A stretch of DNA of 64,000 nucleotides, taken from NCBI RefSeq assembly GCF_030384885.1, contig NZ_CP128613.1; one strand, written 5' to 3'. The stretch is from Escherichia coli (GTDB lineage Bacteria; Pseudomonadota; Gammaproteobacteria; Enterobacterales; Enterobacteriaceae). Position numbers and translations under genes: made by a program. Shown here piece after piece: positions 22,360-23,960 of this stretch. Positions within the stretch are counted from its first letter, which is position 1, and every line of letters starts with the position of its first letter. The notes under the pieces are model-generated. The model searched no databases. It was not told where the DNA came from and worked only from the letters and a program-made list of their open reading frames with translations.

Positions 22360-23960
<1,601 letters not shown>

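Follow-up and report, generated by a model that had tools for sequence, protein, structure and literature searches.

An in-frame 9-bp tandem repeat polymorphism in the Pro/Ala-rich tail of Escherichia coli MreC

VNTR-type loci serve in E. coli MLVA typing. VNTR/SSR polymorphisms in low-complexity linkers consist of tandem direct repeats whose alleles differ by whole units, recur on unrelated backgrounds and lie in compositionally biased, fast-evolving segments. The same features are found at a 9-nt repeat in the 3′ part of E. coli mreC, and the variant described here is an ordinary example, a short-tandem-repeat polymorphism that stays in frame within a low-complexity linker. It differs from the VNTR/SSR typing loci in its very low copy number (1-3) and low allele diversity (97% of 5,425 genomes have 2 units), and is for these reasons a weak hotspot rather than a hypervariable typing locus or a long hypermutable tract with many alleles.

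The interaction of MreC with PBP2 is modulated by the MreC gamma domain (271-367), in which the helix 279-305 (R292H) has been mapped as the part important for function. MreC(1-305) and MreC(1-278) complement MreCD depletion at higher induction; MreC(1-305) has a lower protein level, interacts less with PBP2 and needs this higher induction (bioRxiv 10.64898/2026.01.05.697639). These laboratory truncations alter the same gamma/Pro-rich region that carries the repeat, and that region is not strictly required. They remove 62-89 residues, cut the protein level and weaken the PBP2 interaction, whereas the variant described here adds 3 residues. A search for a described mreC repeat polymorphism returned nothing relevant within the literature searched, and the 370-aa proteins already deposited are annotated in databases as plain MreC.

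The mreC repeat and its comparison with K-12

The window, a 64,000-nucleotide stretch of E. coli contig NZ_CP128613.1, contains an open reading frame of 370 codons plus a TAG stop on its + strand at 22360-23472. A preliminary description made from the DNA letters had called this frame mreC, an assignment borne out by a Pfam match to PF04085 (MreC barrel core) at residues 123-269 (E = 1.7e-42, 145 bits against a cut-off of 28), by a full-length match to PDB 7EFT (E. coli MreC, 100% aligned to the window MreC) and by the RefSeq annotation of the homologous loci in 5,425 E. coli genomes as mreC. An MreB ORF lies upstream, and mreD overlaps the mreC stop codon, with the same annotation in all fetched E. 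coli loci. The frame encodes an ordinary MreC.

Near its 3′ end, the unit CTGCGCCTG forms a perfect tandem repeat of 2.8 copies at 23357-23381 (+ strand), which reads directly as ctgcgcctg (23357-23365), ctgcgcctg (23366-23374) and ctgcgcc (23375-23381). Tandem Repeats Finder returned the same interval (period 9, 2.8 copies, 100% matches, score 50), in agreement with the two copies and partial third copy reported in the preliminary description. In frame, the array spans codons 333-341 (23356-23382), ACT GCG CCT GCT GCG CCT GCT GCG CCG, encoding T333-A-P-A-A-P-A-A-P341, within which lies the APAAPAAP stretch that had been proposed.

Only three arrays in the 64-kb window scored ≥40 with Tandem Repeats Finder, the mreC repeat among them. 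Its 16 consecutive lag-9 matches are the longest perfect tandem run in the window (lags 4-30; the runner-up has 12). A run of 16 was reached in none of 200 dinucleotide-preserving shuffles of the window and, under a stricter null, in 2 of 20,000 shuffles of the 71 Pro/Ala-rich tail codons; the 9-nt repeat is far beyond chance. The second array lies at 18164-18198 (period 12, 2.7 copies, 79% matches), inside a 324-aa minus-strand ORF (17880-18854), and the third at 47246-47286 (period 21, 1.9 copies, 80% matches), where it overlaps no ORF of ≥100 aa.

DNA structure and overlapping elements were also considered. The single-stranded fold of 23335-23400 has an energy of -10.8 kcal/mol and a z score of -0.2 against shuffles, which is nothing special, and hairpin-driven slippage was dropped on this value. 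Rfam gave no matches in 20500-25000, no promoter-like sites were found in 23000-23800, and the single terminator-like match (23497-23511) is at chance level. A role for the repeat as part of an overlapping RNA or promoter was dropped, as neither an Rfam family nor a promoter-like site overlaps it.

K-12 MG1655 mreC (b3250) is 1104 nt long and encodes 367 aa (NP_417716.1, WP_000802511.1), as the preliminary description had stated. The 3-residue length gap between it and the window protein was ascribed there to exactly one 9-bp unit; DNA and protein alignments gave the same result, and K-12 has one unit fewer rather than a 370-aa protein with an equal repeat count. In the MG1655 alignments the extra unit falls at 23366-23374 (+ strand), a placement that is arbitrary because any unit could be called the insertion. 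Residues 1-326 are identical in the two proteins, the tails are alike except at residue 327 and the repeat, and the operon order (mreB-mreC-mreD-yhdE-rng) is the same; relative to K-12, the window has one additional unit (AAP) and T327 in place of A327 (A327T). Eight E. coli strains showed no change in residues 1-326, and all protein variation was in the tail, with codon 327 (window 23338-23340) as the sole site of amino-acid substitution among the strains compared. This codon is triallelic: GCG (Ala) in K-12, ACG (Thr) in the window and GTG (Val) in strain R32_14_1F. K-12 residue numbering of the MreC tail is not transferable to all E. coli strains.

Length alleles in complete E. coli genomes

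To count the alleles, 5,425 complete E. coli genomes were queried with 81-161-nt tail probes for each allele. Counts were taken from BLAST coverage, identity bands and match spans, and approximately 20 loci were inspected directly. The RefSeq complete-genome set is redundant and clinically biased (THO-008 is entered twice, and CB209 has two accessions), so that counts are approximate. One of 5,426 complete genomes had no mreC match, and one genome had a second mreC match on a plasmid-classed record.

Natural lengths of E. coli MreC were 338, 364, 367, 370 and 373 aa, with short direct repeats at each indel. The allele with 2 units (367 aa) was present in about 5,277 records (97%), that with 3 units (370 aa) in 29 records (25 with the 042 local haplotype, plus A29, EC2001, LR536431 and E02) and that with 1 unit (364 aa) in 2 records (AB66 and EC01307). 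Six records have 18 bp duplicated in another register (373 aa), and about 108 have an 87-nt microhomology deletion (338 aa). The five length classes total about 5,422, and the 3-unit count is uncertain by approximately 3 (32 by subtraction, 29 by span listing). The copy-number alleles differ by whole units, with 1, 2 and 3 units giving 364, 367 and 370 aa. Counting units across E. coli mreC alleles, the comparison suggested in the preliminary description, thus yielded alleles of 1, 2 and 3 units, with the refinement that few genomes carry the 370-aa form (29 of the 5,425 complete-genome records).

The 373-aa allele is explained by a repeat register that overlaps the 9-nt array at 23371-23396 (+ strand), where CCTGCTGCGCCGACACAG (23371-23388) is followed by CCTGCTGC (23389-23396). 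This allele duplicates the 18-nt string CCTGCTGCGCCCACACAG, which is flanked by the 8-nt direct repeat CCTGCTGC, and it does not contain a fourth 9-bp unit; the 18-nt unit is a second slippage register overlapping the 9-nt repeat. The carriers GF8, GF75, GF161, CDF6, OkiPb01685 and M24FEP all encode WP_111996544.1 (the GF8 allele is at locus L004, 1101-1190). A 4-unit allele was considered and rejected, as the 90-nt spans resembling four units proved to be the 18-bp duplication in the other register, and no genuine allele of four units turned up. Cluster P0001 (13 member sequences of a 378-aa E. coli MreC) was likewise rejected as a longer repeat allele; it is a stop read-through variant with the normal 2 units, in which TAG is changed to TGG and translation reads through into the mreD overlap.

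The 338-aa allele (WP_000802506.1) has an 87-nt in-frame deletion that removes 29 tail residues, including the entire repeat. The absent segment corresponds to 23326-23421 (+ strand; 96 nt in the window, 87 nt in K-12) and lies between two imperfect 12-nt direct repeats, ACTCCGCAGCAA (23323-23334) and ACGCCGCCGCAA (23419-23430). The figure of approximately 108 counts the records with no alignment spanning the tail; three of them were inspected, and all three encode 338 aa. Two 338-aa carriers, PK8275 and CB7286 (loci L008 and L009), are identical in mreC. The repeat is one part of a broader indel-prone tail that also includes the 18-bp duplication and the 87-nt deletion.

In the laboratory strain E. 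coli B95.deltaA (locus L006), the mreC stop is TGA and not TAG, and there are five nearby synonymous changes (CGTAGCCCGCAACGG vs CGCTCTCCACAAAGG). This 3′ end is consistent with engineered recoding of UAG stops and not with natural variation.

The allele series is very probably an in-frame copy-number polymorphism generated by slippage at short direct repeats toward the low-complexity 3′ end of mreC; it lengthens a flexible tail and is most likely near-neutral. The common 367-aa allele carries CTGCGCC-TG-CTGCGCC, or 1.8 copies of the 9-nt unit, and misalignment of the nascent and template strands by one unit (9 nt) would be stabilised by 7 bp of pairing. The outcome would be a gain of 9 nt, giving 370 aa with an extra Ala-Ala-Pro, or a loss of 9 nt, giving 364 aa. 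The 18-bp duplication (8-nt repeats) and the 87-nt deletion (10 matches in 12 nt) would belong to the same class of replication or repair misalignment. Slipped-strand mispairing, which had been proposed from the window alone, agrees with the natural 1-, 2- and 3-unit alleles and with the presence of 3 units on at least five haplotypes; the mechanism itself is suggested by the pattern of alleles.

Assemblers can miscount repeats, and some bacteria use tandem repeats for phase variation, so that the length difference might be an error of sequencing or assembly, or else act as a phase-variable (contingency) switch. Either is extremely improbable here. The array is just 25 nt, far below read length; the 3-unit allele is present in 29 complete genomes, and the exact 370-aa protein in 344 blocks of public assemblies. 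An NCBI draft contig (GCA_017755465.1, DADSKQ010000004.1) is identical to the window across all 7,113 nt compared and, together with the 344 assembly blocks, indicates that the allele is real and not private to the window. Because the unit is a multiple of 3, frameshifting or on/off switching is impossible, and the copy range is only 1-3, with neither a promoter-like site nor an Rfam family over the repeat. With its 9-nt unit, with all alleles in frame with the mreC stop/mreD start and with no promoter-like site, the repeat lacks the features of phase-variable contingency loci; it is not one of these loci because no frameshift results and only 1-3 copies occur.

Backbones of the three-unit allele

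Fifteen alleles were compared in a 2.2-kb alignment (mreC, mreD and part of yhdE) in which indels were masked and SNPs counted. Strain 042 (370 aa) differs from C4 (367 aa) by 1 SNP in 2.2 kb plus the unit, and A29 and EC2001 (370 aa) differ from K-12 (367 aa) by 3 SNPs. LR536431 (370 aa) is 2 SNPs from GF8 (373 aa) and 3 SNPs from 2013C-4974 (367 aa). The window (370 aa) is 7 SNPs from 2013C-4282 (367 aa), which over 20 kb is the closest complete RefSeq E. coli genome to the window (99.2%; none is identical). E02 (370 aa) stands on a separate branch, and none of the sampled 2-unit alleles is close to it. The deposited 370-aa alleles have DNA backbones other than that of the window, from which they differ by 22-29 SNPs per 2.2 kb: WP_023063032.1 (LR536431) is identical in protein sequence to the window MreC, and WP_000802509.1 (042, A29 and EC2001) has the same 3-unit repeat but A327.

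At least five distinct mreC backbones carry the 3-unit allele. Four of these are 1-7 SNPs from a 2-unit allele, and 3-unit alleles on different backbones are 15-32 SNPs apart. Four length classes (364, 367, 370 and 373 aa) occur together in one group of closely related haplotypes (within 8 SNPs). Sites flanking the array also vary among 3-unit alleles, at codon 327 (ACG/GCG/GTG), codon 332 (GCT/GCA/GTT) and codon 341 (CCG/CCC), and wherever a close 2-unit neighbour was sampled, the flanking sites of the 3-unit allele match it; 2013C-4974 and the window differ by CCC/CCG. The occurrence of the 3-unit allele on several backbones, near 2-unit alleles, points to recurrent slippage and not to a single inherited event. 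The most economical reading of these comparisons is at least five independent 2-to-3 expansions, together with independent contractions and duplications.

The same distribution could be produced by a single ancient 2-to-3 expansion that then spread among E. coli lineages by homologous recombination, a process that does occur in E. coli. LR536431 and L015, both 370 aa and of the CCC type, are just 8 SNPs apart and may share one origin. As an account of all 3-unit alleles, however, a single expansion is very unlikely. Flanking SNPs are unlike among the 3-unit alleles at codon 327 (20 nt upstream), at codon 332 (2 nt upstream) and at codon 341 (at the 3′ edge), so that an imported tract would need to be shorter than approximately 30 nt, and the 042 type differs from C4 by only that 1 SNP in 2.2 kb plus the unit. 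Recombination over very short tracts could in principle move the repeat count between backbones; transfer of a tract of less than approximately 30 nt, the only alternative to independent expansions, is unlikely.

The tail of MreC and the mreC/mreD junction

The repeat lies in a low-complexity Pro/Ala/Gln/Thr-rich tail (23266-23469, + strand; residues 303-370), which was delimited by composition and is outside the Pfam domain. Residues 303-370 are 84% P/A/G/Q/T/S and 4% hydrophobic. The equivalent region of P. aeruginosa MreC is disordered for the most part, according to prediction in the literature. An AlphaFold2 model of the 370-aa MreC, built from a 20-sequence alignment, had low confidence along its whole length (mean pLDDT 43), with the known barrel itself below 50, and is uninformative about the tail.

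Enterobacterales MreC is highly conserved through residue 302 (…MMPQVLP), beyond which it is unalignable and length-variable; full-length proteins across the order range in size from roughly 330 to 375 aa. E. whittamii, Escherichia sp. E1V33 and SCPM-O-B-8794 (labelled E. coli) read …QQPATGTAADRSPQR… and are without the 11-aa segment that bears the repeat, and E. albertii has yet another sequence at the repeat position (alignment with loci L016, L017, L019 and L020). The 11-aa segment would have been either gained in E. coli or lost from sister Escherichia lineages.

Because the unit is a multiple of three and the Pro/Ala-rich, non-globular periplasmic tail lies past the barrel and the helix 279-305, the added unit would make a flexible tail merely 3 residues longer. 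The 29-residue deletion, which occurs in approximately 2% of complete genomes, is natural evidence that MreC gamma-domain residues from roughly 322 to 350 are dispensable in the wild, and it complements current elongasome truncation studies. Taken with the complementation by the truncated proteins, this natural deletion suggests that a three-residue insertion at 333-341 is very likely neutral or close to it. The distal tail is not without any effect, judging from the reduced level and PBP2 interaction of MreC(1-305), and the presence of the 2-unit allele in 97% of genomes would likewise agree with tail length being under weak purifying selection. The preliminary description had placed the polymorphism in an essential morphogenesis gene; this holds for mreC as a whole, but the repeat sits in its most dispensable part according to the natural and laboratory deletions.

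Tail length might instead be functionally tuned, with the AAP count adjusting the reach or auto-regulation of the gamma domain on PBP2 and alleles selected by lineage. Modulation of the MreC-PBP2 interaction by the gamma domain, the weaker behaviour of MreC(1-305) relative to the full-length protein and the 25 records of the 042 type, in which one 3-unit allele persists in a lineage, would agree with such tuning. It is nevertheless quite improbable, since just 3 residues are changed in a low-complexity tail of approximately 68 residues, the natural 29-aa deletion persists in approximately 2% of genomes, sister species are without the segment, other genera have unrelated tails of very different length, and the functionally mapped part is the helix 279-305 and not residues 333-341. 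That length variation over the whole range of 338-373 aa is non-neutral, tuning gamma-domain control of MreC-PBP2 in certain lineages and thereby their cell width or envelope robustness, is a shade less probable still. With slippage in a near-neutral tail as the preferred reading, the locus is a real, recurrent, in-frame indel hotspot and probably near-neutral. The variant alone matters little, being a three-residue change in the length of a flexible tail with alleles already in RefSeq. It shows that an essential gene with otherwise extreme conservation contains a small indel hotspot, and is relevant to typing by mreC length or sequence and to the interpretation of in-frame indel calls there.

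The mreC/mreD junction (23460-23474, + strand) consists of a Shine-Dalgarno-like motif, GGGAGGG (23460-23466), inside the last mreC codons (P-G-G-Q), the mreC TAG stop (23470-23472) and the mreD GTG start (23472-23474), with stop and start overlapping in ATAGTG. The mreD ORF extends from 23472 to 23960. In the RefSeq annotation of each fetched locus, the mreC end is the mreD start, and the junction is kept in all length alleles. The terminal GG(Q) is conserved in the otherwise unalignable MreC tails of other Enterobacterales, and this conservation may be due to the mreD ribosome-binding site and not to the function of MreC.
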